Assembly (NCBI RefSeq): GCF_055900595.2
Contig: NZ_CM148325.1
Direction: 5' to 3' (one strand)
DNA: 64,000 nucleotides
Numbering within the stretch: the stretch's first letter is position 1; each line of letters starts with the position of its first letter. Shown here in pieces: positions 1 to 40,068 of the stretch. The translations under genes were made by a program, and so were the position numbers. The notes under the pieces are model-generated. The model was given only the letters and a program-made list of their open reading frames with translations. It ran no database searches and was not told the origin of the DNA.

Positions 1-83
1 TTACTACGATTGGTTTGGTTGGGTCTGGAAGGATTTGCTGTACTGCGTGAATAGCGTTTTGCTGATGTGCTGGAGATCGAATT

Positions 84-296
84 TCAAAGGTCAGTTTTTT
101 CATGACTTCCCTCTCTAACAGATTTCAGGTTATTCCACTCCGTTACCGCACTGCGATAATTCGCGGCCGCCACAGCAGCGTGGTTAGCGCAGTAGATTTG
201 GCACCCGTTCTCCATGTCGAATATTGTCGGTGATTTTCCGCATTTACATTTTTTGGCACGCGGTGCGTCTGAACACATTCCGTTAACGGTGTCCAT
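84..296 (-). CDS. Hypothetical Cys-rich small protein (nin-region position)
   Basis: 70-aa ORF downstream of replication genes, several Cys pairs; no family recognised. Confidence 0.4.
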   Translation of the reverse strand: MDTVNGMCSDAPRAKKCKCGKSPTIFDMENGCQIYCANHAAVAAANYRSAVTEWNNLKSVREGSHEKTDL

Positions 297-320
297 TAGG
301 ATCCCCCTAGTTCTTAATCC

Positions 321-350
321 AATAAAAAAGGGCTACTGTGTAAATAGCCC
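321..350 (-). terminator. Putative rho-independent terminator (tR2-like position)
   Basis: Hairpin GGGCTA...TAGCCC (330..350) followed on the minus strand by a T-run. Confidence 0.35.
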
Positions 351-381
351 CTGTTATTAGCCCAGTGATGTAGATGGTCAT

Positions 382-2262
382 TTAATACTCCGTCACGTTT
401 TCCTGTCGCCACGCCTCGTCATATTCCGATTTCGGCATATTGGCGATGTAGCTATATGGCGATCCTGATTCAAGTTGCAGGAACTGGTGCGATTGCTCGT
501 CAAGGAACAACGGGACACCACCTTCCCAACCTTCGCCGTTACGTTGTTTTTCAAGCATCAAAACAGATGCCGGAGATGCCAGTAGCTGTTCGTCCTTCTC
601 TGACATCTTTTCACCACTCTGAACTCTCTGTAACGCTCTCTCGCGAGCCTTGTTACGCCAGATGATGAAAAGGTTGTCTGTCAGGTCTGTTATCGCTCCA
701 GAGCCTTTTACGTCCATTTTCCCGGTTGGTTTTTCTTCGCTGTCTCCTTTTCGCGAGTGAGTAACGAGAATGACGTGGGAGTTTGTTTTGTTTTTGAAGT
801 CGCAAATCGAGTCAACAAACGCCTTCTGCCCGTTATAGTCATCGTCGCCTATGCCACATTTCATCAGGCTGTCGATGATGAATAACTGGATCCCGTATCG
901 GCGGCGAGCGTAGTCGAATATTTCGATCAGCCTGTCGGCTTTCGCCGTTCCGGTCAGGCCAAACACCCAGAGTCTTTCGTCATAAAATTTAAATGCAGAG
1001 TCAATTTCCAGCACTGGCGGCATCTTGCAGCACGTTGCCTGACGGGTAAGGCGCTTAAGGAGAATACCAGGCTTCAGCTCAAGTGACGCGATGCACGTCT
1101 TCACACCCTGACGCATTGCCTCAAGTGCCATATGCCCGACAACCTCCGTTTTTCCGTGACCGTTCACACCATTGACCAGCGTCAACTCGGCCTCACGGAA
1201 CTGGAATTTATCTGCCAGAGATTCCCACGGTGGATTAAACAGATACTGCTGCTTGCCGTAGAAAGCGTTGATAGTGTCCTGGTAAAACTCTCGCGCGCTG
1301 TAGAGTTCTTCAGGATCGAAGTAGGATGCCGTGCCAATGTACTGCCAGATTTCATCCTCGGTAACACCGTTCATCAGGCATTCGTTGATGTCTTTGTACG
1401 GCAGAGTAACAAGACGGCAACGATGTTCACCGAGTCGGCTTGCGATTTCCCTTGCGGCTTCACGACCAACATCATCAACGTCCATCGAGATGAATATTTC
1501 CTCAAACCTGTCGAGGTTGTGATACTCAAACTCAATCCACTGCTGCTTAGCGCCTTTCCCGCCACCAAACGGCACGGATAACGCCGAGATGCCGTATTGC
1601 GCATAGCTCATACAGTCAATTTCGCCTTCGCAAAGTACAACAGCCCTCACGCCAGCGTCCAGAGCCTGCCATCCGAACAGACAAGGTTCGCAATCACCTT
1701 CTGCCATAATGACTTTCTTCCCGTCCGGGCGCTCAGTGCTGATTCGCTTGACCTGCAACAACTCACCATCGCGTTTGTACGGAATCACCAGAGCATCCAG
1801 TTCCCGCTCTCCATTCCACACCTTGCCGCTGACAACCTCGTATCGCTTTACGATTTCTGGCGATATGCCACGCGATTGCAGGTACTCAAGATGGGATTCT
1901 GTTCTGGTAACGTAGCGGGCTATTTTCTTGCGATCAGGTCTGGAGAATTTCTTCTCACGTTTGGCATCGAAATGGTGATCGTCATCCTTGATACCGAGAA
2001 ATGCTTTCGCTTCCTGCATAGCCTGATGCAGGTTAATTCCACGACATGCCATCCACAAATCAAGCATGTCACCGCCGTCTCCCTCAGCGAAATCAGCCCA
2101 TTTTTTCTTGCCGCTAAGATTGACCTTAAGGCTGTTTCCCTTGTCACCGTTGACGTTACCGGCAACCCACTCATGCCCCTCTTTCTTGCCGTTTGGCAAC
2201 AGGTGCGGAGCCACCCTGTCAACCTGCGCCCAAAGCAGGTCGCTAAGTTCACTTGGCGTCAT
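382..2262 (-). CDS. Bifunctional DNA primase / replicative helicase (TOPRIM + DnaB-like ATPase)
   Basis: 626 aa; TOPRIM-like LCEGEIDCMS, Walker A GVNGHGKT, Walker B-like FIIDSL; sits where lambda P would be. Confidence 0.85.
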   Translation of the reverse strand: MTPSELSDLLWAQVDRVAPHLLPNGKKEGHEWVAGNVNGDKGNSLKVNLSGKKKWADFAEGDGGDMLDLWMACRGINLHQAMQEAKAFLGIKDDDHHFDAKREKKFSRPDRKKIARYVTRTESHLEYLQSRGISPEIVKRYEVVSGKVWNGERELDALVIPYKRDGELLQVKRISTERPDGKKVIMAEGDCEPCLFGWQALDAGVRAVVLCEGEIDCMSYAQYGISALSVPFGGGKGAKQQWIEFEYHNLDRFEEIFISMDVDDVGREAAREIASRLGEHRCRLVTLPYKDINECLMNGVTEDEIWQYIGTASYFDPEELYSAREFYQDTINAFYGKQQYLFNPPWESLADKFQFREAELTLVNGVNGHGKTEVVGHMALEAMRQGVKTCIASLELKPGILLKRLTRQATCCKMPPVLEIDSAFKFYDERLWVFGLTGTAKADRLIEIFDYARRRYGIQLFIIDSLMKCGIGDDDYNGQKAFVDSICDFKNKTNSHVILVTHSRKGDSEEKPTGKMDVKGSGAITDLTDNLFIIWRNKARERALQRVQSGEKMSEKDEQLLASPASVLMLEKQRNGEGWEGGVPLFLDEQSHQFLQLESGSPYSYIANMPKSEYDEAWRQENVTEY

Positions 2263-2366
2263 GATTCCCTCAGATTGAGATTTTTAAACCAGAAATCGAC
2301 AAATGAAATACTTAACCAGCCGTGGTTATAACCAGCGACCAGTAGCGATTTGATTTTTGATTTCAT
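2259..2366 (-). CDS. Possible 35-aa ORF coupled between initiator and primase-helicase
   Basis: ATG with AGGTGA SD; stop overlaps primase start (ATGA); below ORF-track cutoff. Confidence 0.25.
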   Translation of the reverse strand: MKSKIKSLLVAGYNHGWLSISFVDFWFKNLNLRES

Positions 2367-2369
2367 GGT

Positions 2370-3230
2370 TCACCTGTCGAAAAACACGTAGCCAGTTTTC
2401 GATACGGTGATTGCGGATGATGGTTTGGATTGTGGTTGAATGGTTTCTGGCTTTTCGTCGTTCCAGCGTTGACCGTTCAGGTAGCTCGATGGTAACAACC
2501 TGTCGAATCCGAACTGCTTACCATTCCTGCATGCGATGTCTTCTGCCAACATCGTGGCAAACTCGCTTGCCGTACCCCTGGTAGTTTTACGCCATTCCCT
2601 GAACTGTGTTCTGAATGCCGAAGCTGCGTTTTTCTTCCCGGCTTTCCGCATGCCTGCACACCAGAATATTTCCTCGAATGCCTTGTCGGTTTCTTCGTGA
2701 CGGTCAGGTGATTTTTCACACTCCGTCCGAACACTTTCGGACATAGTGTTTTTATTATTTCTTTTTTCTTTTGTAATAGTTTCTTTTGTGTGTCCCTGTT
2801 TTGGTGACAGCGCTGTCACCATTTTGGTGACACTTTTTGTCACCAATGCAGTGACATTATCACCAGAGTAGTGACACCCTTCGATTTGCCATTCCTCGAT
2901 GTTCTTGTTAGGCCCGATTTGCTGGCCTTCGCGAAGGATAACCTTCATCGCGATAAGCTCATTCTTGGCCTTGTTTACCTTCTGTCTTGGCAGCCTGGTA
3001 ATTTGAGCTAACTGACTATCAGAGATGCGATCCATCTTTTTACCGTAGCCGTATGTTTTACGGCATATGGCGTGGGCAACCTTGCTCTGATTTTTCGTTA
3101 AATCTGCGCCGATAAGCTCTTCATACAGGGCATTTGCAAGACGGGTATAACCATCTTCAACTTCTGCCACACGACGCTCCACAGGCCGTTGTGAAGGCCT
3201 TAAATGTGTTACGGTTGCAAGATTACTCAT
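2370..3230 (-). CDS. Replication initiator, lambda O-family N-terminal domain
   Basis: N-terminal region resembles lambda O (DGYxRL...ADLTK...KTYG...MDRIxDSQL...GPNKNI.EW); iterons lie inside the gene. Confidence 0.75.
2801..2880. repeat. Origin iterons (GGTGACA/TGTCACC repeats) with adjacent AT-rich tract
   Basis: At least 6 direct/inverted GTGACA motifs within 80 bp, flanked by AT-rich 2745..2790, in the initiator linker as in lambda ori. Confidence 0.55.
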
Positions 3231-3369
3231 GACCTTTCTCCTTCTGCATCAGCTTCACTTTTTCCAACTCAGCCCGGAATCGACCAGGCTGCTTGAAGCT
3301 GGACAGGAAGCGATCACGTAGTATGTGTTTGTGAATTTTGTCCTGGTAAGGACTGAGTTGTTTTGTCAT
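3223..3369 (-). CDS. Hypothetical basic 48-aa protein between cII and the initiator
   Basis: [18 protein letters not shown]... with AGGAG SD 6 nt upstream; 3-prime end overlaps initiator start. Confidence 0.4.
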
Positions 3370-3403
3370 AATTACTCCTGTGGATTGATCCAGTCTTTCT
3401 ACA

Positions 3404-3682
3404 TCAGGCCTCGAAGAATTCGCCGTTCTTCGGGGCTTTTTCTTTTGTCAGCATTCTGGCTACTTTCTTAGCCAGTTCCGCCAACTCCTCGTCTTCAACA
3501 CCCCATTCAAGAACAGCCAGAAGCATTCCCATTTTTGGGATGAAGCTGTCTTTCCATCGTGAAATTTGCGATTCATTAATCCCTAACGCGTCGGCCACCT
3601 TTCGCTGACCACGTACAGCAATTCGATTTAGGATGTTGCTTGTAATTGCATTCGCTTTCTTGCGAGTACTTGTAAGTTGCAT
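3404..3682 (-). CDS. cII: CII-like transcriptional activator
   Basis: Matches lambda CII core (SQISRWK...[10 protein letters not shown]). Confidence 0.8.
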
Positions 3683-3761
3683 ATGTAAGTATTTCCTTAG
3701 ATAACAATTGATTGAATGTATGCAAATAAATGCATACACCATAGGTGTGGTTTAATTTGAT

Positions 3762-3793
3762 GCCCTTTTTCAGGGCTGGGATGTGTAAGAGCG
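3762..3793 (-). promoter_or_regulatory. nutR (boxA + boxB)
   Basis: Minus strand reads boxA CGCTCTTACA then boxB GCCCTGAAAAAGGGC, between cro and cII. Confidence 0.65.
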
Positions 3794-3801
3794 GGAATGT
3801 C

Positions 3802-5154
<1,353 letters not shown>

Positions 5155-5179
5155 TCCCCACCTCAATCTCGATAACCAA

Positions 5180-5220
5180 AAACAAACTATTTTTCATTTA
5201 AAAACAATGGAGTTTGTTTT
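5180..5220 (+). terminator. Possible terminator of the immunity transcript
   Basis: Inverted repeat AAACAAACT...AGTTTGTTT followed by T-rich sequence; large loop, weak. Confidence 0.3.
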
Positions 5221-5240
5221 TCACGCCCCTTTTTACAATA

Positions 5241-5283
5241 TTTCTTGTTTACAACATACAATCTTTCTTGTAATTTTAAGCCA
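5241..5283 (+). promoter_or_regulatory. pL-like promoter with left operators
   Basis: TTTACA, 17 bp, TAATTT upstream of a lambda-pL-like transcript start; two TTTCTTGT operator repeats overlap. Confidence 0.5.
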
Positions 5284-5315
5284 TCAGCAGGACGCACTGA
5301 CCACCATGAAGGTGA

Positions 5316-5346
5316 GGCTCTTAAAAATTAAGCCCTGAAGAAGGGC
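5316..5346 (+). promoter_or_regulatory. nutL (boxA + boxB)
   Basis: GGCTCTTAA then GCCCTGAAGAAGGGC, as in lambda nutL. Confidence 0.8.
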
Positions 5347-5544
5347 AGCATTCAAAGCAGAAGGCTTTGGGATTGGATGAATGAGCAGGCTGATGCTCGA
5401 CCAATGTATAAACAGCGCTCATGGCAAGCAGTAACCAATCTGCGCCTCAAGACAGCGTCACTGGTAGTGCGGGCGCTCTAACCAGTAAGCCGGGGTTCAG
5501 CGCCGGCCATCCAATCACCAAAGCTAACTGACAGGAGAATCCAG

Positions 5545-5877
5545 ATGGATGCACAAACACGCCGCCGCGAACGTCGCGCAGAGAAACAGGCTCAATGGAA
5601 AGCAGCAAATCCCCTGTTGGTTGGGGTAAGCGCAAAACCAGTTAACCGCCCTATTCTCTCGCTGAATCGCAAACCGAAATCACGAGTAGAAAGCGCACTG
5701 AATCCGATAGACCTTACGGTGCTGGCTGAATACTACGAACAGATTGAAAGCAACCTGCAACGTATTGAGCGCAAGAATCAGCGCACATGGTACAGCAAGC
5801 CACGGAGTGAAATGGGTGTGACATGCTCAGGCCGCCAGAAGCAACGCGGAAAATCAATTCCGGCTTATTACGATTGA
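5545..5877 (+). CDS. N: Antiterminator N
   Basis: MDAQTRRRERRAEKQAQWKAANPLL..., Arg-rich motif, near-identical to lambda N over most of its length. Confidence 0.92.
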   Translation: MDAQTRRRERRAEKQAQWKAANPLLVGVSAKPVNRPILSLNRKPKSRVESALNPIDLTVLAEYYEQIESNLQRIERKNQRTWYSKPRSEMGVTCSGRQKQRGKSIPAYYD

Positions 5878-5885
5878 GGTGAGAT

Positions 5886-6137
5886 ATGGAATTTCATGAA
5901 AGTGCGATTTGTGATTTTCGCGCTAACGCAAATTCAGTAAAACCACAGCCAATTGCAGTTCTTTTTAAAACAATGGGAGCGTGGGCTGTTTTATGCTTCG
6001 CCTCTGACGACACTGATGCAAGAATGGCAATAGGCCAAGAGATGGAGATGGACCCGACAAACGATGAATTCATAATTTATGGCGCTCCATCTAATTACTT
6101 ACTTGATACCTGCAACATTTACAACAAGGCTGCCTGA
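5886..6137 (+). CDS. Hypothetical protein (83 aa)
   Basis: ORF with GAGGTGAG SD immediately after N. Confidence 0.5.
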   Translation: MEFHESAICDFRANANSVKPQPIAVLFKTMGAWAVLCFASDDTDARMAIGQEMEMDPTNDEFIIYGAPSNYLLDTCNIYNKAA

Positions 6138-6196
6138 TGGTGGCCTTTATTTTTTTGCCGTAAATAATTTCATGATTATTACAATCAAGGTGATAT

Positions 6197-6385
6197 ATGA
6201 AACGTAAATTTGAAATTTGGTTGGATTCCGGAGCAAACATTCACTCTTGCAAAAAGACAGTTGTAACACTCGATGATCTTGGCTTATCCGAGAATGAGTG
6301 GAATGAAATGGATCAGGACGAAAAAGACGAAAACATGCGTGATGTAGCATTTGAAACGCTTGATTGGGGATGGAAGGAAATTTAA
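6197..6385 (+). CDS. Hypothetical small acidic protein (62 aa)
   Basis: ORF with AGGTGA SD; Asp/Glu-rich C-terminal half; followed by a terminator hairpin. Confidence 0.55.
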   Translation: MKRKFEIWLDSGANIHSCKKTVVTLDDLGLSENEWNEMDQDEKDENMRDVAFETLDWGWKEI

Positions 6386-6390
6386 GTGAT

Positions 6391-6416
6391 GGCCGCATAG
6401 TCGGCCTTTATTTTTG
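6391..6416 (+). terminator. Rho-independent terminator
   Basis: GGCCG-CATA-GTCGGCC hairpin followed by T-run. Confidence 0.45.
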
Positions 6417-6624
6417 GCATAAACAACAGAATAAACACAGCACTGTGTATTCATTCCAACGAGTGAATACACGGAGCAATGTCGCTCGTAACTAAACAGG
6501 AGCCGACTTGTTCTGATTATTGGAAATCTTCTTTGCCCTCCGATGTGAGGGCTTTTTTATATGCATACCAATAACGCTTCACTCGAGGCGTTTTCGTTAT
6601 GCAATCAAACAGAAGGAGCATCCT

Positions 6625-6795
6625 ATGCAACAGTTCGCTATTGCAGGGGCGGCATCGGTTCGCCCTTTCAACCCGATTTTATCGGTACAGCATTCACGAA
6701 AAAATATTTTAACCGGAGCAGACTTTAAACAACCAAGAATGAAAAGTTTGCTCGAAAAGCTTTGGGATATTTTGAAACAACAAGGCCGTCCATGA
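6625..6795 (+). CDS. cIII: CIII-like protein (FtsH inhibitor family)
   Basis: MQQFAIAGA... and SLLEKLWDILKQ resemble lambda CIII; AAGGAG SD. Confidence 0.6.
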   Translation: MQQFAIAGAASVRPFNPILSVQHSRKNILTGADFKQPRMKSLLEKLWDILKQQGRP

Positions 6796-6950
6796 GTTTT
6801 ACGGATAACTGGTCAGACGAAGAATTCATTCGTCAGATGAAAGAATTAATCGGTAACGAAGGAGATATTCATGTCACTTGCAACCACAGTGAAGGAGAGC
6901 AAGTTACAGAGACGCATGTACACGCAGAAAGCTCTCTGGTATCGCCATAA
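6792..6950 (+). CDS. Hypothetical small protein (52 aa)
   Basis: ATG overlaps cIII-like stop (ATGA). Confidence 0.4.
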   Translation: MSFTDNWSDEEFIRQMKELIGNEGDIHVTCNHSEGEQVTETHVHAESSLVSP

Positions 6951-7049
6951 TGGCGACCGCGAAGGAATGCGGGTATGCCTTAATTTGTCCCGAGTCGAAG
7001 TATTAAATCAGCGTTATTTCCTTGGGCCATGTCCATTCTGAGGTGATTT

Positions 7050-7757
7050 ATGGATTTGAATAAATTCGATGAGCCATTCAGCCCTGAAGATATCGAATGG
7101 CGAATACAGCAAAGCGGTAAAACACGCGATGGCAAAGTGTGGGCTATGGTGCTGGCTTATGTCACGAACCGGGCAATCATGAAACGCCTGGACGATGTTT
7201 GCGGCAAAGCAGGATGGCGCAATGAATACCGCGATATTCCCAACAACGGCGGAGTTGAATGCGGCATATCAATCAAGATTGATTCCGAATGGGTAACCAA
7301 ATGGGATGCCGCTGAAAACACGCAGGTAGAAGCCGTCAAAGGTGGTCGTTCCGGTGCAATGAAGCGCGCTGCCGTTCAGTGGGGAATCGGTCGGTATCTG
7401 TATAACCTTGAGGAAGGTTTTGCACAAACATCTCTCGATAAAAAGCAGGGATGGCACAGGGCAAAACTCAAGGATGGAACAGGATTTTACTGGCTCCCTC
7501 CATCGCTGCCGGGATGGGCAATCCCAGCATCAGATAACAAACCATCACCAGAAAATACCAACCAGAAATCTCCATCGGTTGACTGCGAACAAATCCTGAA
7601 AGACTTCAGCGATTATGCGTCAACAGAAACTGACAAGAAAAAACTCATCGAGCGTTATCAGCGTGACTGGCAATTAATGGCTGGCAACGAGGAGGCGCAG
7701 GCTAAATGCGTTCAGGTAATGAACATCAGAGTTAACGAACTAAAACAGGCGGCATAA
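7050..7757 (+). CDS. Single-strand annealing protein (Rad52/Sak-like)
   Basis: Motif KGGRSGAMKRAAVQWGIGRYLY typical of Rad52-type annealases; sits where lambda bet would be. Confidence 0.7.
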   Translation: MDLNKFDEPFSPEDIEWRIQQSGKTRDGKVWAMVLAYVTNRAIMKRLDDVCGKAGWRNEYRDIPNNGGVECGISIKIDSEWVTKWDAAENTQVEAVKGGRSGAMKRAAVQWGIGRYLYNLEEGFAQTSLDKKQGWHRAKLKDGTGFYWLPPSLPGWAIPASDNKPSPENTNQKSPSVDCEQILKDFSDYASTETDKKKLIERYQRDWQLMAGNEEAQAKCVQVMNIRVNELKQAA

Positions 7758-8225
7758 ATGTCTCACTTGGACGGAATTATTAAAAGATTCGAGTCCAGCT
7801 ACAAAGTTAATGAAACAACAGGTTGCTGGGAGTCTACCTATTCAAAAAACAAAGGAGGATACACAAAATTTGTAGCCTTTGGCGTAACAATGCTTTCTCA
7901 TCGGGTTGCTTTTGAGCTTTATCACTCCCCCATTCCATCTGGGAAGATGGTTTGCCACAAATGCGATAACCCATGCTGCGTTAATCCTGAACATCTCTTT
8001 TTAGGTAGCGCGCAAGAAAACATGGACGACAAGATAGCAAAAGGAAGGCATCGTGGAGCCAAGAAAGGTCATGCTCATCATGGTGCAAAATTAACAGAGT
8101 GGCAGGTTATAGAAATTAGGAAAAGACTCTCTGAAAAAGAGAGTCAGTACAAGATAGCAAAAGACATGGGTGTATCTCAATCAATTATAAGCAACATAAA
8201 AACTGGCAAGAGGTGGAGCAAATGA
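7758..8225 (+). CDS. HNH endonuclease with C-terminal HTH
   Basis: HRVAFELYH...[23 protein letters not shown] motif. Confidence 0.8.
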
Positions 8226-8728
8226 GTTCTCGCGGGATAAATAAGGTGATTATTCTTGGTCGGGTAGGACAAGACCCGGAAGTTCGATACTCACCATCAG
8301 GAACAGCGTTCGCTAACCTGACAATAGCCACGTCAGAACAATGGCGAGATAAAAATACTGGCGAGCAAAAGGAATTGACTGAATGGCATCGTGTTGCTGT
8401 ATCCGGGAAACTGGCTGAGGTCGTGGGGCAGTATGTGAAAAAAGGTGATCAGATTTATTTCGAGGGAATGCTGAGAACCAGAAAGTGGAAAGACCAGTCA
8501 GGGCAAGACCGTTACACAACCGAGGTTCATGTCGGAATTAATGGTGTGATGCAAATGCTTGGCGGCATTGGCGACAGCAAACAACAAGCATCCAGCAGGC
8601 AATCACAGAAGCCACAGCAGCAATCATCACCAGCACAACACAACGAACCTCCGATGGATTTTGACGACGATATACCCTTTGCACCAGTAACTCTCCCCTT
8701 CCCTCGTCACGCTATTCACGCAATTTAA
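8222..8728 (+). CDS. ssb: Single-stranded DNA-binding protein (phage SSB) with C-terminal extension
   Basis: OB-fold N-terminus, Gln/Pro-rich linker, DDDIPF motif followed by 15 extra residues. Confidence 0.9.
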
Positions 8729-8741
8729 TCAGGAGAAAATC

Positions 8742-9035
8742 ATGCCAGCGCCTCAGTATGGTGCGGATGACCCGCGCCGCTGTTCCGGCAATTCCGTATC
8801 GGAGGTGCTGGATAAATTCAGAAAAAACTACGACCTGATAATGTCGCTACCGCAGGAAACGAAAGAGGAAAAGGAATTTCGCCATTGTATATGGCTTGCA
8901 GAGAAAGAAGAACGCGAGCGAATTTACCAGACATCAATCCGACCATTCCGCAAAGCCACATATACCCACTTCCCTGAAATTGACCCGCGCCTGCGTAATT
9001 ACCGCTCACGCTATGGCGCTATCAGTAATGACTGA
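8742..9035 (+). CDS. Hypothetical protein
   Basis: 97-aa ORF with CAGGAG SD. Confidence 0.5.
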
Positions 9036-9045
9036 GGAATTTACC

Positions 9046-9210
9046 ATGAGAGGACTTGCATACAATCCCGGCATTCTTCCGGCAGAAATGATTATTCGCC
9101 AACGCGTAAAGCCAATGCCATCGAGAGAGGAATTGCTTAAGAGAAATTCTTTTCCATCAGTGTATCAAAACAAATATCTGAATGCAATGTGGCGGAGTGG
9201 GAAGAAATGA
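9046..9210 (+). CDS. Hypothetical small protein
   Basis: Internal ATG with GAGGAA SD; start uncertain (alternative ATG at 9028). Confidence 0.35.
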
Positions 9211-9626
9211 AACAAATGTCACTAATTGAGATGGATGGATTTCTGAAAGGTAAATGCATCCCAAGTGATTTAAAGGTTAACGAAACAAACGCTGATTATC
9301 TGGTGCGTAAATTTGCTGAAGCGGAGGCCAAGTGCGCGGCGCTTGCGGCGGAGAATGAGCTGGCTCGTAAGGCAGTTCAGGCATTCTGCGATGTTGTTGG
9401 CGACAACACCGAGGTTATCGCTGAGGTGGTTGGGCGAGATGGCGTTCTGGTTATTTTGGAGGCCATGAAGGCAACAGGAAATATGCCAGCCACCGATGCT
9501 TTTCTGGCTGAAGTACGGGCGCAGGGTGTTGAATTGTTGCGCGAGCATCCTGCTATCCAGATTTGCTCTTTAACGCACGTATGCGACGAGTTCGCCGCCC
9601 AGCTTCGTCAGGGGGAAGCGGTATGA
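9207..9626 (+). CDS. Hypothetical protein
   Basis: ATGA overlap with upstream ORF; start uncertain. Confidence 0.5.
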
Positions 9627-9940
9627 GCATAGTTGATGATTCACATCTTACAGACGAAGTGGTTAACGCCGCTTTCGAAGGTACCAATTTCGGGCGCACT
9701 GATTTCCGCACCATTCTGGCAGAAACAGTTATGAAGCGTGCTGCTGGCTATCACTCTGGCTACACGGCAACGACTATCTGTATTCGCCTGGGATTGCTTG
9801 GCAAACACGATCGCCCGACAAAACTCGGCCTGACCTTCGCTTTCCATCACTACTACAGGCCATGCGTTCGCGAAGCGCTGATTTCGCATAACAGCCTTGA
9901 AGTATGGGCAAAACTTGGAGCACAGGAGTCCGCCAAATGA
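9623..9940 (+). CDS. Hypothetical protein
   Basis: ATGA overlap with upstream ORF. Confidence 0.5.
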   Translation: MSIVDDSHLTDEVVNAAFEGTNFGRTDFRTILAETVMKRAAGYHSGYTATTICIRLGLLGKHDRPTKLGLTFAFHHYYRPCVREALISHNSLEVWAKLGAQESAK

Positions 9941-10224
9941 GCAACATCAACAAACAGGCGCTGATTGCAAAAATCAAAAAGCAGGCCGAAAGCTTCGACA
10001 CAGTGGTGTTGAGAGAGGATGAAGCTAACGCGCTGCTGGATGAGCTGGAAGCAGCAGAGAAGCGGATTGCTGAACTGGAAGCGCGGGAAATACTGCTCCC
10101 GGAACGTAGCAGCATGCTTCATCGAACAGATTTTCACGATGATTACCAAACGGTAATGGCATACAAAGTTTCTGAAGTCATCGATGCAATCCGCGCCGCT
10201 GGCATTCGTATCAAAGGAGAGTGA
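9937..10224 (+). CDS. Hypothetical coiled-coil protein
   Basis: ATGA overlap; heptad-like LDELEAAEKRIAELEARE. Confidence 0.5.
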   Translation: MSNINKQALIAKIKKQAESFDTVVLREDEANALLDELEAAEKRIAELEAREILLPERSSMLHRTDFHDDYQTVMAYKVSEVIDAIRAAGIRIKGE

Positions 10225-10225
10225 T

Positions 10226-10447
10226 ATGGCTAACTCATTACTTGAAACCTGCAACAACTGGCAGATTCAGAGGGCGGAGATTTTATCTCGCAATCCAGAT
10301 ATGGCAATGACAATTGATAATCTGGACACGCTAATTGAACGGACCGTGCGTTCTGCAATTGATATAGCACATCGAGTGGATTGGGATTTCAGAGAAGCGG
10401 AGCGACTTGCTAAAGAGCAGGCGAAAGCAGCGGGTAAAGGAGAGTGA
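10226..10447 (+). CDS. Hypothetical protein
   Basis: ATG after conserved AAAGGAGAGTGAT junction. Confidence 0.45.
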   Translation: MANSLLETCNNWQIQRAEILSRNPDMAMTIDNLDTLIERTVRSAIDIAHRVDWDFREAERLAKEQAKAAGKGE

Positions 10448-10448
10448 T

Positions 10449-10646
10449 ATGGATAAAAACACCACTGCTTACTGGAGTCTTTCACTTGATACCGAATGTC
10501 CCAAATGCGGCCACAATTTCGATCTGCTTTGCGATGCTGATTTCTGGGAATTTTCTGGAGCAAAACAGGCATGTGAAGAAATAAAAGGTTACGAAACATG
10601 CTGCCCAGAATGTAACCATGAATTTAAAACAGATTTTGTGTATTGA
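10449..10646 (+). CDS. Hypothetical zinc-ribbon protein
   Basis: CPKCG...CCPECN; same AAAGGAGAGTGAT junction upstream. Confidence 0.5.
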   Translation: MDKNTTAYWSLSLDTECPKCGHNFDLLCDADFWEFSGAKQACEEIKGYETCCPECNHEFKTDFVY

Positions 10647-10656
10647 GGCATAACGA

Positions 10657-11466
10657 ATGACCACTTTTACTAAAGAACAATTAATAGAGATAATTAAGCG
10701 CAATATAACGGTTATGGATCGTTATCCTGATTTAGTAACTGCACAAATGGATCTGGAAGTATACAAAATTGCGCTGGCATCACTGGAAGCAGAACCAGTT
10801 GCTTATATTTTCAAACATCCGGCCGGGAAATTATTCTGGGCTTTAACGGATGAAAGCAATAAAGAGCAACCGGACGTTATTCCTGTTTATGCTGACTCAC
10901 CTGCGCCGGTTGTGCCGGATGAAATAGACGTAAACGATGTACCAAGGGCGGTGACATATTTCAAGACACACAGAGATTGTTACGCAGATGGCTGGAACGC
11001 CTGCCGCGCCGCCATGCTTCAGTCCGGAAACTTTCGGGAAAACAAGAATTCGTCAACCAATAATTTTCGGGAAATCGCGGAAACGTCAACCAACTATCCG
11101 GTAATTCCTAGTGAGGTGTTGTCCGCAATCCTGAAGGTTGCCAAGATTCGTGCCGATTTCGATGATTTTGACGGTGACAGGCGAGGTATCGGTGATTGTC
11201 TGGATGAGGCTGAGCAAGAGCTTATCGTTACCATTAACAAATATGCCAGTCAGTTGGCAGCAGAACCGATAGCGACTAATGACGTTCGAGAGCAAACAGC
11301 CGTTCCGCCAGTTCCTGTAATACAGGCTGATGTCGCGCAGGCAATTGAAAAACTCAAACGGAAATTAGTGGAATGCAATCGCTATAACTACTGCGCAGAT
11401 GCAGTTAAGGGCGTTGAGTATGCCTGCCACGCTGCCACGCTGCCACGCTGCCATGCTTCAGGGTAG
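10657..11466 (+). CDS. Hypothetical protein (269 aa)
   Basis: Long ORF; 3-prime end carries the CTGCCACG tandem repeat. Confidence 0.55.
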   Translation: MTTFTKEQLIEIIKRNITVMDRYPDLVTAQMDLEVYKIALASLEAEPVAYIFKHPAGKLFWALTDESNKEQPDVIPVYADSPAPVVPDEIDVNDVPRAVTYFKTHRDCYADGWNACRAAMLQSGNFRENKNSSTNNFREIAETSTNYPVIPSEVLSAILKVAKIRADFDDFDGDRRGIGDCLDEAEQELIVTINKYASQLAAEPIATNDVREQTAVPPVPVIQADVAQAIEKLKRKLVECNRYNYCADAVKGVEYACHAATLPRCHASG

Positions 11467-11857
11467 CCAACCTGTAAGCCAAACTTACAAGTTTCCAGTT
11501 AATACACCTTGCCAGGATGCGCCAGCCCATATCTGGCTGCAAACAGCTGGAGTATGGCCAGAAGATGGCGAGTTAAGCGAATTAACGTGGTGCAGCCACA
11601 ATCAGCACCATGATGACACGCTATATGTTCGAGCTGACTTGGTAAATGGCAATTCTCCGGTAACTCCGGATGGTTGGATAAGCTGTAGTGATCGAATGCC
11701 AAACGAAGAAGATGTTTTGGTTTATTGCTCAGACACTAAAGAGCAGATGGTAGGGTTTCACAAAGGTAAAGGGTTATTTCAATTCTTTTACATGAATGGT
11801 GTTGAGGGGGTATGTGAGCCGTCACACTGGATGCCGCTACCAGAGCCTCCACTTTGA
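11399..11857 (+). CDS. Phage protein with DUF551-like C-terminus; start uncertain (ATG at 11399, 11420 or 11453)
   Basis: C-terminal W.PLPEPP-type motif; no convincing SD at any candidate start. Confidence 0.5.
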   Translation: MQLRALSMPATLPRCHAAMLQGSQPVSQTYKFPVNTPCQDAPAHIWLQTAGVWPEDGELSELTWCSHNQHHDDTLYVRADLVNGNSPVTPDGWISCSDRMPNEEDVLVYCSDTKEQMVGFHKGKGLFQFFYMNGVEGVCEPSHWMPLPEPPL

Positions 11858-11953
11858 AAGCGAAGCTTATACATATCTTTTACATCAGCAATCTATTGTT
11901 AATCTCCAATCAATGTTACGTTGTCATCTCACTCATGCTTTGGAGGTAGTGAT

Positions 11954-12133
11954 ATGTCTTGTCCAAAATGCGGTTCTGGAAATATTGCAAAAGAAAAAAC
12001 AATGCGTGGATGGTCTGGTGATTATGTGTGCTGCGATTGCGGATACAACGACTCTAAAGACGCATTTGGAGAGCGTGGTAAAAACGAGTTTGTCAAAATT
12101 AATAAAGATCGCGAAGGCAACGGAAAAAGCTAA
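11954..12133 (+). CDS. Hypothetical zinc-ribbon protein
   Basis: CPKCG...CCDCG; GGAGG SD. Confidence 0.5.
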   Translation: MSCPKCGSGNIAKEKTMRGWSGDYVCCDCGYNDSKDAFGERGKNEFVKINKDREGNGKS

Positions 12134-12198
12134 TTTATTTATTCATATATGAAAACAATGTAACCAATATTCGAATTGAAGAACTGAAAGAACACCAA

Positions 12199-12220
12199 GC
12201 CGCCTGATGGCGGTTTTTTC
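12199..12220 (+). terminator. Rho-independent terminator upstream of xis
   Basis: GCCGCC-TGAT-GGCGG hairpin followed by TTTTTT. Confidence 0.45.
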
Positions 12221-12246
12221 TTGCGTGTAATTGCGGAGACTTTGCG

Positions 12247-12465
12247 ATGTACTTGACACTTCAGGAGTGGAACGCACGCCAGCGACGCCCAAGAAGCCTT
12301 GAAACAGTTCGTCGATGGGTACGCGAGTGCAGGATATTCCCTCCTCCGGTTAAGGATGGAAGAGAGTATCTGTTCCACGAATCAGCGGTAAAGGTTGACT
12401 TAAATCGACCAGTAACAGGTAGCCTTTTGAAGAGGATCAGAAATGGGAAGAAGGCGAAGTCATGA
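12247..12465 (+). CDS. xis: Excisionase
   Basis: 72 aa, MYLTLQEWNARQRRPRSLETVRRW..., lambda Xis. Confidence 0.92.
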   Translation: MYLTLQEWNARQRRPRSLETVRRWVRECRIFPPPVKDGREYLFHESAVKVDLNRPVTGSLLKRIRNGKKAKS

Positions 12466-13513
12466 GCGCCGGGATTTACCCCCTAACCTTTATATAAGAA
12501 ACAATGGATATTACTGCTACAGGGACCCAAGGACGGGTAAAGAGTTTGGATTAGGCAGAGACAGGCGAATCGCAATCACTGAAGCCATACAGGCCAACAT
12601 TGAGTTATTTTCAGGACACAAACACAAGCCTCTGACAGCGAGAATCAACAGTGATAATTCCGTTACGTTACATTCATGGCTTGATCGCTACGAAAAAATC
12701 CTGGCCAGCAGAGGAATCAAGCAGAAGACACTCATAAATTACATGAGCAAAATTAAAGCAATAAGGAGGGGTCTGCCTGATGCTCCACTTGAAGACATCA
12801 CCACAAAAGAAATTGCGGCAATGCTCAATGGATACATAGACGAGGGCAAGGCGGCGTCAGCCAAGTTAATCAGATCAACACTGAGCGATGGATTCCGAGA
12901 GGCAATAGCTGAAGGCCATATAACAACAAACCCTGTCGCTGCCACTCGCGCAGCAAAATCAGAGGTAAGGAGATCAAGACTTACGGCTGACGAATACCTG
13001 AAAATTTATCAAGCAGCAGAATCATCACCATGTTGGCTCAGACTTGCAATGGAACTGGCTGTTGTTACCGGGCAACGAGTTGGTGATTTATGCGAAATGA
13101 AGTGGTCTGATATCGTAGATGGATATCTTTATGTCGAGCAAAGCAAAACAGGCGTAAAAATTGCCATCCCAACAGCATTGCATGTTGATGCTCTCGGAAT
13201 ATCAATGAAGGAAACACTTGATAAATGCAAAGAGATTCTTGGCGGAGAAACCATAATTGCATCTACTCGTCGCGAACCGCTTTCATCCGGCACAGTATCA
13301 AGGTATTTTATGCGCGCACGAAAAGCATCAGGTCTTTCCTTCGAAGGGGATCCGCCTACCTTTCACGAGTTGCGCAGTTTGTCTGCAAGACTCTATGAGA
13401 AGCAGATAAGCGATAAGTTTGCTCAACATCTTCTCGGGCATAAGTCGGACACCATGGCATCACAGTATCGTGATGACAGAGGCAGGGAGTGGGACAAAAT
13501 TGAAATCAAATAA
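12443..13513 (+). CDS. int: Tyrosine integrase, lambda Int
   Basis: 356 aa; N-terminal arm-binding region and catalytic domain as in lambda Int; overlaps xis. Confidence 0.95.
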   Translation: MGRRRSHERRDLPPNLYIRNNGYYCYRDPRTGKEFGLGRDRRIAITEAIQANIELFSGHKHKPLTARINSDNSVTLHSWLDRYEKILASRGIKQKTLINYMSKIKAIRRGLPDAPLEDITTKEIAAMLNGYIDEGKAASAKLIRSTLSDGFREAIAEGHITTNPVAATRAAKSEVRRSRLTADEYLKIYQAAESSPCWLRLAMELAVVTGQRVGDLCEMKWSDIVDGYLYVEQSKTGVKIAIPTALHVDALGISMKETLDKCKEILGGETIIASTRREPLSSGTVSRYFMRARKASGLSFEGDPPTFHELRSLSARLYEKQISDKFAQHLLGHKSDTMASQYRDDRGREWDKIEIK

Positions 13514-13586
13514 TGATTTTATTTTGACTGATAGTGACCTGTTCGTTGCAACAAATTGATAAGCAATGCTTTTTTATAATGCCAAC

Positions 13587-13601
13587 TTAGTATAAAAAAG
13601 C
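13587..13601. other. Lambda att core (prophage-host junction, BOP-prime type) with int-proximal P-prime arm at 13514..13586
   Basis: Reverse complement reads GCTTTTTTATACTAA; flanking arm reads like lambda P-prime arm. Confidence 0.8.
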
Positions 13602-13647
13602 AGGCTTCAACGGATTCATTTTTCTATTTCATAGCCCGGAGCAACCT

Positions 13648-14931
13648 GTGAACACATTTTCAGTTTCCCGTCTGGCGCTGGCATTGGCTTTTGGCGTGAC
13701 GCTGACCGCCTGTAGCTCAACACCGCCCGATCAACGTCCTTCTGATCAAACCGCGCCTGGTACCTCTTCTCGCCCGATTCTGTCGGCAAAAGAAGCGCAG
13801 AATTTCGATGCTCAACACTATTTTGCGTCCCTGACGCCAGGTGCTGCAGCGTGGAATCCTTCCCCGATTACTCTGCCTGCGCAACCTGACTTTGTTGTCG
13901 GCCCGGCGGGTACTCCGGGTGTAACGCATACCACGATTCAGGCGGCGGTAGATGCGGCAATTATCAAGCGCACCAACAAGCGCCAGTATATTGCCGTGAT
14001 GCCTGGTGAGTATCAGGGAACGGTGTATGTCCCTGCTGCTCCGGGTGGAATTACTCTGTACGGTACAGGTGAAAAACCGATTGATGTGAAGATTGGGCTT
14101 TCCCTTGATGGGAGCATGAGCCCTGCCGACTGGCGTCACGACGTCAACCCGCGCGGCAAATATATGCCAGGTAAACCAGCGTGGTATATGTACGATAGCT
14201 GCCAGAGCAAACGCAGCGACAGTATCGGCGTTCTGTGTTCTGCGGTCTTCTGGTCACAAAACAACGGCCTGCAACTGCAAAACCTGACCATCGAAAACAC
14301 GCTGGGTGATAGCGTAGATGCGGGTAACCATCCGGCGGTGGCACTGCGTACTGATGGCGACAAAGTGCAGATCAATAACGTCAACATTCTCGGTCGTCAG
14401 AATACATTCTTTGTCACCAACAGTGGTGTGCAAAACCGTCTGGAAACCAACCGTCAGCCGCGTACTCTGGTGACCAACAGTTACATTGAAGGGGATGTGG
14501 ATATCGTTTCTGGTCGCGGCGCAGTGGTGTTCGATAATACCGAATTCCGCGTGGTGAACTCACGTACTCAGCAAGAAGCGTATGTGTTTGCACCGGCTAC
14601 GCTGTCTAACATCTATTACGGTTTCCTCGCCGTAAACAGCCGCTTCAATGCTTCCGGTGATGGCGTGGCGCAACTGGGCCGCTCGCTGGATGTTGATGCC
14701 AATACCAACGGTCAGGTGGTGATCCGTGATAGCGCCATCAACGAAGGTTTTAACACGGCTAAACCGTGGGCCGATGCGGTGATTTCCAATCGCCCGTTTG
14801 CGGGTAATACTGGCAACGTTGATGATAACGACGAAGTACAGCGTAATCTGAATGACACTAACTACAACCGCATGTGGGAATACAATAACCGCGGCGTGGG
14901 TAGCAAAGTGGTTGCAGAGGCGAAGAAGTAA
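13648..14931 (+). CDS. ybhC: Pectinesterase-family lipoprotein YbhC
   Basis: GTG start, lipoprotein signal (LTAC), 427 aa. Confidence 0.9.
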   Translation: MNTFSVSRLALALAFGVTLTACSSTPPDQRPSDQTAPGTSSRPILSAKEAQNFDAQHYFASLTPGAAAWNPSPITLPAQPDFVVGPAGTPGVTHTTIQAAVDAAIIKRTNKRQYIAVMPGEYQGTVYVPAAPGGITLYGTGEKPIDVKIGLSLDGSMSPADWRHDVNPRGKYMPGKPAWYMYDSCQSKRSDSIGVLCSAVFWSQNNGLQLQNLTIENTLGDSVDAGNHPAVALRTDGDKVQINNVNILGRQNTFFVTNSGVQNRLETNRQPRTLVTNSYIEGDVDIVSGRGAVVFDNTEFRVVNSRTQQEAYVFAPATLSNIYYGFLAVNSRFNASGDGVAQLGRSLDVDANTNGQVVIRDSAINEGFNTAKPWADAVISNRPFAGNTGNVDDNDEVQRNLNDTNYNRMWEYNNRGVGSKVVAEAKK

Positions 14932-14946
14932 AAGCGATTAACTTTT

Positions 14947-15150
<204 letters not shown>

Positions 15151-15163
15151 CACATGGCGCTTT

Positions 15164-17425
15164 TTACATCTGACGGTTTTTATTGAAGTTAATCAAACTA
15201 CCCGCCTTGATAATCTCGCGCTCTTCAGCAGTCAGACTTTCCATATAGAGCGTAATCTCTGTTACCGGCGCATCTTCATGGATCACATAACCTTTAAACG
15301 TCGTCCCCGGATTATCCAGCGCCGCTTTAATGCCAGGGATGTAAATGTAATCGCCCACTTCAAAGTTCGGTGCTTCCGCCATCTGCAGCGGTAACATTCC
15401 CCAGTTGATGACGTTAGAACGGTAGCGTTTAGTCGCGTATTCCTCGGCAATATTCGCCAGACCGCCAATCACACGCTGGCAGCTCGCCGCCTGCTCACGC
15501 GCAGAACCATCGCCTGGTTTCACCGCATAGACCATGCTGCCAATTTCAGTTTGCAGCGGATCAATATGCTCCTGACCAGCAATCTGCTTAATGCGCGCAA
15601 ACACCTCTGTCAGCTCGCTGACATTGCCCGCCAGACGCTGATTTTCCAGCTCAGCAGTCGCTTTACTTCTGCCAACATAACCTGGATCGCGGCGTGACAG
15701 GGTAAACTCCGCCAAACCAATCGGATTTGAACGATAAGAAGAGGTTTCACCGGAAGGAATCAGTTCGTCGGTGGTGGTGACTTCGTCGAGGATCTTCGAG
15801 CACACTTTGAGGACGATATTGTCAGTCAGCGCCCCCAATTCCGGCCAGTCTTTAATGTTCGGTCCGTAAATCAGCGGTTGCTGGGTCGCCCCTTTCACAA
15901 AGCCCTGATAAACACGGTTTTTATACGGCGTTACATCGAAGGCGTACTCCGGCACGTTGTCCCAGCAATCGAGTTCGCTGGCAGAGGTTAAATAGCCTCC
16001 GTTTGCCGCAGTCGCAGCAATAGAACGGGCGTCCATCAACGCCACCGCTGACATCTGACCATTAGCTGGCTTAGAGCCTTCGCGGTTCGGGAAGTTACGC
16101 GTGGTGTGGCGAATACTCAAACCGTTGTTGATTGGCGTATCACCCGCACCGAAGCATGGGCCGCAGAACGCGGTTCTGATGATTGCGCCTGCGCCAATCA
16201 AATCTGCTACCATGCCTTTTTTGGCTAAATCCATAAACACCGACTGTGATGACGGATAAACCGCCAGCGAGAAGGTGTCATTGCCACAGGATTGACCGCG
16301 CAGCGCATTCGCCGCCGCGATGACGTTTTCGTAGTTACCGCCAGAACAGCCCGCGATAATCCCCTGCTGCACTTTCAGGCGACCATTTTCCACTTTATCC
16401 AGCAGCGAGAGTTTGGCTTTACCGTGCGCCACGCGCTCGGACTCAATTTCAATCTCACGCAGAATGTCAGTCAGGTTCTGGTTCAGCATGTCGATTTCAT
16501 ACACGTTGCTCGGGTGGAACGGCAGCGCAATCATTGGTTTGATGGCGCTTAAATCAACGCTGATGCAGCCATCGTAGTACGCCATCGGTTGAGGGTTAAG
16601 CTGGCAGTAATCCTGGCCGCGACCGTGCAGCGCCAGCCAGTTATGGACTTCTTCATCAGTTTGCCAGACAGAACTTAAACAGGTAGTTTCAGTGGTCATC
16701 ACGTCAACGCTGTTACGGAAATCGGTAGAGAGCGCCGCAACACCGGGACCCACGAACTCCATCACTTTGTTTTTGACGTAGCCGTTTTTGAACACGGCAC
16801 CGATGATAGCCAGCGCCACATCCTGCGGCCCCACATACGGCGCAGGTTTTCCGGTCAAATGCACCGCAACAACTCCCGGATAGTCGATATCCCAGGTGTC
16901 ATTAAGCAGCTGTTTTACCAACTCACCGCCACCCTCACCGACTGCCATTGTCCCTAATGCACCGTAACGGGTGTGGCTGTCTGACCCGAGGATCATTTTG
17001 CCGCCGCCTGCCATCATCTCACGCATATATTGATGGATGACCGCAATATGTGGAGGCACAAAAATACCGCCATAACGCTGCGCTGCCGATAAACCAAAAA
17101 CATGGTCATCACCGTTAATGGTGCCGCCGACGGCGCAGAGTGAGTTATGGCAGTTGGTCAGCACATACGGCAGCGGGAAACGTTCCATACCGGACGCTTT
17201 AGCGGTCTGTACAATACCAACAAAGGTAATATCGTGAGAGGCTAATGAATCAAACTTAATTTTAAGTTTATCCATATTTCCGGACGTATTATGAGAAGAG
17301 AGAATAGACCAGGCAATAGTGCCTTTTTTTGCTTCTTCTTTTTTAATTTCGCCGGTGAAATGTTCTTCGGCAATTATTTCGTTATTACTGGCGAGAAACA
17401 CGCCTTTTTCAGATAACTTGATCAT
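15164..17425 (-). CDS. ybhJ: Aconitase-family hydratase YbhJ
   Basis: 753 aa from MIKLSEKG; aconitase-family size and composition. Confidence 0.85.
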
Positions 17426-27137: not shown

Positions 27138-28610
27138 ATGTCATCGTTGCAAATTTTGCAAGGCACGTTTCGTCTTAGCGACACAAAAACGCTGCAATTG
27201 TCTCAGCTAACGTTAAACGCGGGTGATAGTTGGGCGTTTGTCGGTTCGAATGGAAGCGGGAAGTCGGCGCTGGCCCGCGCGCTGGCGGGGGAACTTCCGC
27301 TTTTGAAAGGTGAACGACAAAGTCAGTTTTCCCACATCACTCGTCTCTCCTTCGAGCAATTGCAAAAGCTCGTCAGCGACGAATGGCAACGGAATAACAC
27401 CGATATGCTCGGCCCTGGCGAAGATGACACCGGACGCACTACGGCTGAAATCATTCAGGATGAAATTAAGGATGCACAGCGTTGTGCGCAGTTGGCGCAG
27501 CAGTTCGGCATTACCGCCCTTCTCGACCGACGCTTTAAATACCTTTCCACTGGCGAGACGCGAAAAACCCTGCTGTGTCAGGCGCTGATGTCGGAGCCAG
27601 ACTTGTTGATTCTTGATGAGCCGTTCGATGGCCTGGATGTTGCCTCACGTCAGCAGCTGGCTGAGCGACTCGCCTCGTTACATCAGTCCGGTATTACCCT
27701 GGTACTGGTGCTCAATCGCTTCGATGAGATCCCGGAATTTGTCCAGTTTGCTGGCGTGCTGGCGGATTGCACGTTAGCGGAAACTGGCGCTAAAGAGGAA
27801 CTGCTCCAACAAGCACTCGTCGCGCAACTGGCGCATAGCGAACAGCTTGAAGGTGTGCAACTGCCGGAGCCAGATGAACCTTCAGCACGTCACGCCTTAC
27901 CTGCCAACGAACCGCGCATTGTGCTGAACAACGGCGTGGTTTCTTATAACGATCGCCCCATTCTTAATAACCTTAGCTGGCAGGTGAATCCAGGCGAGCA
28001 CTGGCAAATTGTCGGGCCAAATGGCGCGGGAAAATCGACGCTATTAAGCCTGATTACAGGCGATCATCCGCAAGGTTACAGCAACGATTTAACACTTTTC
28101 GGACGACGTCGCGGCAGCGGCGAAACCATCTGGGATATCAAAAAGCATATCGGTTACGTCAGCAGTAGTTTGCATCTGGATTACCGGGTCAGCACTACCG
28201 TGCGTAATGTGATCCTTTCTGGCTATTTTGATTCGATTGGCATTTATCAGGCCGTTTCAGATCGCCAGCAAAAACTGGTGCAGCAGTGGCTGGATATTCT
28301 CGGCATTGATAAACGCACGGCTGACGCTCCTTTCCATAGTCTTTCCTGGGGACAGCAGCGTCTGGCGCTGATCGTTCGCGCACTGGTGAAGCATCCGACT
28401 TTGCTTATTCTTGATGAACCTTTACAGGGCCTTGATCCACTCAATCGCCAGCTTATCCGCCGTTTTGTTGATGTGCTGATTAGCGAAGGTGAAACGCAAT
28501 TATTGTTTGTTTCACACCACGCCGAAGATGCGCCCGCCTGTATTTCACATCGTCTTGAGTTCGTGCCGGACGGTGACCTCTATCGTTATGCGCTGACAAA
28601 AATAAACTGA
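27138..28610 (+). CDS. modF: ABC-type ATPase ModF (tandem ATPase domains)
   Basis: Two Walker A motifs (GSNGSGKS, GPNGAGKS). Confidence 0.88.
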   Translation: MSSLQILQGTFRLSDTKTLQLSQLTLNAGDSWAFVGSNGSGKSALARALAGELPLLKGERQSQFSHITRLSFEQLQKLVSDEWQRNNTDMLGPGEDDTGRTTAEIIQDEIKDAQRCAQLAQQFGITALLDRRFKYLSTGETRKTLLCQALMSEPDLLILDEPFDGLDVASRQQLAERLASLHQSGITLVLVLNRFDEIPEFVQFAGVLADCTLAETGAKEELLQQALVAQLAHSEQLEGVQLPEPDEPSARHALPANEPRIVLNNGVVSYNDRPILNNLSWQVNPGEHWQIVGPNGAGKSTLLSLITGDHPQGYSNDLTLFGRRRGSGETIWDIKKHIGYVSSSLHLDYRVSTTVRNVILSGYFDSIGIYQAVSDRQQKLVQQWLDILGIDKRTADAPFHSLSWGQQRLALIVRALVKHPTLLILDEPLQGLDPLNRQLIRRFVDVLISEGETQLLFVSHHAEDAPACISHRLEFVPDGDLYRYALTKIN

Positions 28611-39080: not shown

Positions 39081-39432
39081 GAATAGCAAAAAAGCGCCTT
39101 TAGGGCGCTTTTTTTACATTGGTGGGTCGTGCAGGATGACTCGCTTCGCTCGCCCTTCGGGCCGTCGCCGCGAGCGGCTCCGTTGTTTCGCTACGCTCAA
39201 CTCGAACCTGCTGCAGGTTCGAATCTTTGAATATCCCAGATAGCAAAAAAGCGCCTTTAGGGCGCTTTTTTACATTGGTGGGTCGTGCAGGATGACTCGC
39301 TTCGCTCGCCCTTCGGGCCGTCGCCGCGAGCGGCTCCGTTGTTTCGCTACGCTCAACTCGAACCTGCTGCAGGTTCGAATCTTTGAATATCCCAGATAGC
39401 AAAAAAGCGCCTTTAGGGCGCTTTTTTTACAT
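39081..39432. repeat. Tandem ~156-bp repeats downstream of the tRNA operon, each with a terminator hairpin and a tRNA-Lys 3-prime-end fragment
   Basis: AAAAAAGCGCCTTTAGGGCGCTTTTTT plus TGGTGGGTCGTGCAGGATGACTCG... repeated with period ~156 bp. Confidence 0.6.
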
Positions 39433-39508
39433 TGGTGGGTCGTGCAGGATTCGAACCTGCGACCAATTGATTAAAAGTCAACTGCTCTACCAACTGAGCT
39501 AACGACCC
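39433..39508 (-). tRNA. lysQ: tRNA-Lys (UUU)
   Basis: 76-nt match to tRNA-Lys, anticodon loop CTTTTAA, CCA encoded. Confidence 0.9.
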
Positions 39509-39640
39509 CTTGCGGGATTATGCTGCTTTAATCATTCAGGATGGTGGGTCGTGCAGGATGACTCGACTTCGTCTCGCCCTTCGGGCCGTTGCTGACGCAA
39601 CGTTATCCTTCACGTTCTCTACCAGTAACCACCTTTAAAT

Positions 39641-39938: not shown

Positions 39939-39941
39939 GAG

Positions 39942-40017: not shown

Positions 40018-40068
40018 GATACTGCGCTGGATACTACAAACTACTTCCACCGAACCCACCGTAATTAG

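Follow-up and report, generated by a model that had tools for sequence, protein, structure and literature searches.

A lambda-type attL junction next to ybhC bounds a P22-like mosaic prophage that is probably excisable in Escherichia coli

Organization of the attL junction

The window, a stretch of 64,000 nucleotides of contig NZ_CM148325.1 (assembly GCF_055900595.2), begins inside a prophage that occupies positions 1-13601 and ends with the excisionase gene xis (12247-12465, + strand), the integrase gene int (12443-13513, + strand) and an attachment junction, beyond which lies the chromosomal gene ybhC (13648-14931, + strand). The rest of the prophage, about 25 kb with its attR, precedes window position 1.

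The 15-bp lambda core GCTTTTTTATACTAA, which is the common core (O) of attL, is present in the window as a single exact copy at 13587-13601 on the minus strand, with 0 mismatches, and no other core-like site with at most 2 mismatches was found in the window, where 0.09 would be expected by chance. The 7-bp overlap TTTATAC lies inside this core at 13590-13596 (minus strand). In an alignment to lambda (NC_001416), window positions 13514-13601 (minus strand) match lambda 27724-27811 at 100% identity, the core corresponding to lambda 27724-27738 and the entire P' arm (window 13514-13586, minus strand), down to the int stop codon, to lambda 27739-27811. An exact match of 88 nt to lambda is far beyond chance. 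The identity runs from the first base of the core across the P' arm into int, and on the opposite side of the core the similarity to lambda ends abruptly and E. coli sequence starts.

The protein-binding sites of the junction are all found in their expected order. The C' site (13577-13591) is on the P' arm side of attL and is followed in the P' arm by the H' IHF site (TATCAATTTGTTG, 13549-13561) and by the arm-type sites P'1 (13531-13540), P'2 (13521-13530) and P'3 (13510-13519), the last of which overlaps the int stop codon. On the other side, the B arm, which is the chromosomal side of attB, covers 13602-13647 (minus strand) and extends to the start of ybhC, and the B core-type site of attL, ending in CCTGCTTT, is at 13597-13604. 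C', H', P'1 to P'3 and the other att sites were placed with their known lambda attP sequences. How P'1 and P'2 act in excision, and which sites excision requires, has been described (PMC4880445).

The features of a lambda-type attL are therefore found together here, namely the core, the P' arm sites, a bacterial B arm, an adjacent integrase and excisionase and a partner attR, the latter in a clone-mate described below, and 13514-13608 is assigned as a bona fide attL (B-O-P'). The initial annotation had proposed an intact 15-bp lambda core with an arm resembling the lambda P' arm, which agrees with the 88 nt of identity and with the presence of every P' site.

Integrase and excisionase genes

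The int gene encodes a lambda-type heterobivalent tyrosine integrase of 356 aa with the Pfam domains Arm-DNA-bind_1 and Phage_integrase, which is identical to lambda Int at 353 of 356 residues (99.2%) and keeps the catalytic RKHRHY set (R212, K235, H308, R311, H333 and Y342). The xis gene, which overlaps the start of int, encodes an excisionase of 72 aa that shares 71 of 72 residues with lambda Xis (98.6%) and matches the Pfam model Exc (E = 4e-41). The proposal of a full-length int and xis beside the junction is borne out by these comparisons.

Two of the residues that distinguish this Int from lambda Int, P164 and V248, are common to the free phage Huey, while the change A150G is private. 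The nucleotide responsible, at position 12891 in int codon 150, is the sole difference from the prophage of E. coli strain EC332 in the region from the core to xis, and the exact Int protein with G150 is present in only 2 public contigs, the clone-mate contig DAZWYA010000005.1 and one from the Logan run SRR27886137. Position 150 falls in the core-binding domain of Int and is not a catalytic residue; it is Ala in all other lambda-type Ints examined and Val in a homologue of 75% identity. An Int defect caused by A150G is possible but unlikely.

Chromosomal insertion site

The ybhC gene, annotated as such in EC332 and in strain Z0117EC0005, borders attB on the gal side and is followed by ybhJ and then by the chromosome toward mod and gal. 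Five complete genomes share 99.9% identity with the chromosomal part at 15000-39000, and those that follow them in similarity reach 98.3%. In one of the five, Z0117EC0005, ybhC is directly followed by ybhB and bioA, an arrangement that represents the empty attB, and window positions 13587-15400 have 0 mismatches to this empty site, core included. A four-way alignment of the empty attB, the attL of the window, the attR of EC332 and the lambda attP gives the classic BOB'/BOP'/POB'/POP' pattern. The identity of the chromosomal side to a strain with an empty attB, together with this pattern, indicates that the phage inserted exactly at the core, so the prophage boundary can be fixed at window position 13601. 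The ybhC-ybhB interval is known as an insertion hot spot of prophages (PMC3032704, PMC8190617).

Other elements were observed in the chromosomal part of the window. Between ybhC and ybhJ, a REP/BIME-like unit of 92 bp is repeated 2.1 times in tandem at positions 14947-15141, and a Rfam naRNA4 match is found in the same gap at 15000-15070 (minus strand), while the equivalent intergenic region of EC332 is much shorter. Further along, 41360-41498 (minus strand) matches the CpoB/ybgF thermometer (Rfam RF02782) over its full length with 142 bits, as expected in this chromosomal region.

The second junction in a clone-mate assembly

The attR described here comes from the public draft assembly GCA_043978215.1, a clone-mate, rather than from the window's own record. 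Its contig DAZWYA010000005.1 (213,159 bp) was picked out by the exact Int protein with the private G150, and two more stretches of this contig were fetched via exact EC332 prophage proteins, a tailspike and a lysozyme; the resulting three loci tile positions 15596-73547 of the contig with no conflict. Window positions 1-23513 correspond, without a single mismatch in 23,513 bp, to 39108-15596 of DAZWYA010000005.1. The contig ends (its position 1) at window position 39108, and therefore represents the same clone in a draft assembly other than the record of the window. This end falls exactly at an array in which seven tRNA genes are interleaved with five RtT repeats (window 39120-40433, minus strand), and the assembly probably breaks there because of this array.

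Within the tiled region the core occurs twice and no more, as direct repeats at contig positions 25508 (attL) and 64235 (attR), and from the distance between them the prophage is 38,727 bp long. The attR core (64235-64249 of the contig, 12746-12760 of locus L041) adjoins ybhB, and its right flank continues with bioA and bioBFCD; the B' flank matches the empty site exactly. In the P arm of this clone-mate attR, the P1 site is kept, the H1 consensus is intact, P2 matches at 10 of 10 positions, X1 is identical to that of lambda, X2 has one change relative to lambda, the end bases of the Fis site are kept, the H2 consensus is intact within a region about 30% diverged from lambda, and both the C site and the tI hairpin are kept. 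All P-arm sites that excision requires (P2, X1, X2/F, H2 and C) are thus present. The initial annotation had called for locating the second junction and had regarded its absence or degradation as decisive against excision; the junction has now been located, and in the clone-mate it is an intact attR 38,727 bp from attL.

The P arm as a whole (L041 12440-12760) is a non-lambda allele that is common to phage Huey and EC332. Compared with lambda it has about 125 extra nt just left of the tI hairpin, which might alter the structure involved in sib retroregulation. In a separate scan with the core plus B', the only match was JAEWTL010000008.1 (locus L031, 2,500 bp), which is binned in a metagenome-assembled genome labelled 'Bacillota bacterium' and carries an E. 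coli-type attR with a lambda-type P arm, the core and a flank from the ybhB side; it is probably a misbinned enterobacterial contaminant.

Gene content of the prophage

The part of the prophage inside the window comprises a ninB fragment and genes for the primase/helicase, O, cII, cro, cI and N, followed by genes for a Rad52-like recombinase, an HNH protein, SSB and Abc2, by ea22/DUF551 genes, and by xis, int and attL. The cI-like repressor (4121-4753, + strand) matches the Pfam models HTH_3 and Peptidase_S24, the latter being typical of a self-cleaving protein, and its EC332 equivalent is annotated as LexA family; it would presumably act as an SOS-inducible switch. The N-type antiterminator (5545-5877, + strand; Pfam N36, E = 2e-26) heads the leftward operon that leads to xis and int, and all called genes from N to int share one strand, as in a pL operon. 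These genes, among them those for a toprim primase/helicase, an O-type replication protein and Abc2, the anti-RecBCD protein of P22, were assigned from Pfam matches and from the annotation of the near-identical EC332 prophage. The primase/helicase protein is widespread, being present in 1,271 blocks of public sequence, and the ybhC and bioA proteins are widespread as well.

Similarity to lambda DNA is confined to the end of the element. It begins at the att region and stops at about 12160, a short way upstream of xis, with 10 differences in 1,355 nt, and the remaining 12 kb in the window has patchy matches to Sf101, Huey, vB_EcoP-720R6, mEp043, Sf6 and HK633. Lambda is not among the 15 best phage matches listed for 1-13601, all of which are P22-like or other lambdoid mosaics, and the collinearity that would mark a prophage of phage lambda was not found outside the int-att module. 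Two further readings, a defective lambda remnant of the recombineering type with cro-bioA deleted and an interrupted int of the DE3 type, were considered and rejected, as Int has its full length and the prophage runs leftward through the replication genes into ninB, as far as the start of the window.

The region between the two junctions in the clone-mate holds nin genes, a Q-type antiterminator, a holin, a lysozyme, Rz and both terminase subunits. Its virion genes are those for portal, scaffold and coat, for gp4, gp10 and the tail needle, and for three ejection proteins and a tailspike of 685 aa, and all the genes named are of ordinary length. Precomputed Pfam assignments on the clone-mate loci identify a P22-type virion module, with the families P22_portal, P22_CoatProtein, P22_Tail-4, Phage_stabilise, P22_gp7, Inj_translocase, Phage_P22_gp16 and Head_binding. 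This late region is patchily similar, at 94-97%, to E212, Kapi1, CUS-3 and JEP4. No deposited phage was found that covers at least 80% of any of three queried segments, which jointly span the prophage. The element is best described as a 38.7-kb P22-like mosaic of the CUS-3/Kapi1/E212/Sf101 type that carries a lambda int-xis-att module, and its combination of segments is taken to be new. One correction applies to the prophage of the initial annotation, which is not lambda, as only its int-xis-att module is of that origin.

The ea22/DUF551 region also has an open reading frame of 269 aa (10657-11466, + strand), whose equivalent stretch in EC332 is labelled by PGAP as a DUF551 pseudogene fragment. 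The exact protein is present in only 2 public contigs and leads to a different strain (locus L014), with flanks 95.8% identical. A scan of viral contigs with a 45-mer from this reading frame gave seven partial relatives, and the same prophage was not among them.

Relatives and frequency of the junction

EC332, the best match among the complete RefSeq E. coli genomes, which do not include the genome of the window, carries a near-identical prophage at the same site (locus L002, 5126-44330), with 27 mismatches over about 37 kb and one swap of the nin module at phage coordinates 15119-16721. The chromosome of EC332 is a distinct background, in which ybhJ is 95.8% identical, and the occurrence of a near-identical prophage in this unrelated lineage argues for a recent horizontal spread as an active, infectious phage. 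Huey, which was recovered from sewage as a free phage, has the same P-arm allele and an Int of 99.4% identity with P164 and V248.

Queries of 300 nt, counted when at least 80% covered, found attL in 1,919 and attR in 1,920 of 5,426 complete E. coli genomes. About 35% of these genomes thus carry a prophage with a lambda-type int at ybhC-ybhB, and the near-equal counts indicate that the two junctions normally occur together. A junction type so widespread, present in roughly one complete E. coli genome out of three, is ordinary, and the lambda-type attL in E. coli is a well-known, textbook system in a common configuration.

Excision of the prophage

Recombination of attL with attR in silico yields an attB with 0 mismatches in 615 nt to the empty site of Z0117EC0005, with 3 mismatches in 11,000 over the wider flanks, and a product circle of 38,727 bp. 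The attP of this simulated circle is identical to lambda on the P' side and has the Huey allele on the P side. Both junctions, int and xis, the regulatory genes and a complete late-gene set are intact at the level of sequence, attR and the late genes being those of the clone-mate, and from this we infer that these genes are expressed and that excision may take place. The most probable reading, to which we assign a probability of about 0.88, is that a P22-like mosaic is inserted precisely at the lambda site, is intact in its sequence and would be excisable by the lambda mechanism. The initial claim that the element should be excisable provided that its second junction is intact is supported in this form, as the clone-mate attR is intact and its simulated recombination with attL restores a natural attB.

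The proposed course of events begins with a temperate phage that carried a lambda int-xis-attP module and would have integrated at the canonical attB between ybhC and ybhB. Upon SOS triggering, self-cleavage of the cI-like repressor would open the leftward operon, and antitermination by N would carry transcription on to xis and int. Int, Xis and the host proteins IHF and Fis, the latter as an enhancer, would then assemble on B, C', H', P'1 and P'2 of attL and on P2, X1/X1.5/X2, F, H2, C and B' of attR, and strand exchange within the 7-bp overlap would release the circle of 38,727 bp and restore attB.

It is very unlikely that the element is instead a grounded or cryptic remnant, in which attL, int and xis survive and the far junction or essential genes are gone, so that it does not excise. 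Grounded prophages are frequent in E. coli, a single junction is visible in the window, and PGAP calls a few ea22, DUF551 and Arc fragments pseudogenes in the near-identical EC332 prophage; these fragments, however, are confined to accessory regions, and in the clone-mate attR is intact and the P22-like genes for replication, lysis, head, ejection and tailspike are all there at normal length, to which the practically equal counts of attL and attR across the 5,426 genomes can be added. Intact junctions could also be accompanied by an excision that is impaired, either by A150G or by a poor match of the P' arm, Int and Xis to the diverged P arm. That the region from the core to xis differs from EC332 in A150G alone, that the exact Int protein is clone-specific and that all other lambda-type Ints examined have Ala150 speak for such an impairment, but Val150 in the 75%-identical homologue indicates that a change is tolerated at this non-catalytic residue, the P arm keeps all its protein-binding sites, and in the free phage Huey this P-arm allele functions together with an Int of 99.4% identity, all of which makes impaired excision improbable.

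The core, P' arm, int and xis, at 99-100% identity to lambda, would also suit a true lambda lysogen or a laboratory construct with an attL of the Gateway type, the junction sequence being the wild type from which the Gateway attL sites are derived. A true lambda lysogen is refuted by gene content, and this reading as a whole is hardly conceivable, because the element is non-lambda beyond about 12160 (Rad52-like recombinase, Abc2, toprim primase/helicase and P22-type late genes), its best phage matches are Sf101, Huey, CUS-3, E212 and JEP4, and the junction has a natural chromosomal context and a wild-type overlap.

The excisable P22-like mosaic retains one peculiarity, the pairing of a lambda P' arm, Int and Xis with a P arm diverged at H2 and with Int A150G. 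That this pairing alters the efficiency or direction of recombination is unlikely; if it did, it would amount either to a 'grounding' mutation that arose naturally or to a natural experiment on the P-arm changes that the lambda intasome tolerates. Apart from this, the significance of the junction is slight beyond annotation and it raises no new question. The element is a complete and probably inducible P22-like phage with a borrowed lambda integration module, which replaces the assumption of lambda, and a further example of the movement of the lambda int-xis-att cassette between lambdoid and P22-like phages. Strain typing and the design of prophage curing are possible uses.

Comparison with known systems

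The junction is equivalent to the attL (BOP') of a lambda lysogen, with which it shares the core, C', H' and P'1 to P'3 at 100%, Int at 99.2% and Xis at 98.6%, and the likeness extends to the attB between ybhC and ybhB and to the way in which int and xis are ordered and overlap. It differs from a lambda lysogen in the P-arm allele of attR, with its diverged H2 and the insertion of about 125 nt left of tI, in an Int that has P164, V248 and the private G150, and in the rest of the phage, which is non-lambda. The elements lambda-B of strain B, lambda-Cr of Crooks and Sp3 of O157 Sakai, some of which are defective, occupy the same ybhC-ybhB site with different phage bodies.

The body of the prophage is most similar to temperate P22-like podoviruses that infect E. 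coli and Shigella, namely CUS-3, Kapi1, E212, JEP4, Sf101, Sf6 and Huey, with a patchy DNA identity of 94-98%. They have in common the P22-type terminase, the portal, scaffold and coat proteins, gp4 and gp10, the tail needle and the ejection proteins, the tailspike with its head-binding domain and, among early proteins, Abc2, N, the S24 cI-like repressor, O and the primase/helicase. Several of these relatives, including Sf6 and CUS-3, depend on other integrases and insert elsewhere, for instance at argW, and Huey has the same lambda-type int-xis-attP as the prophage described here.
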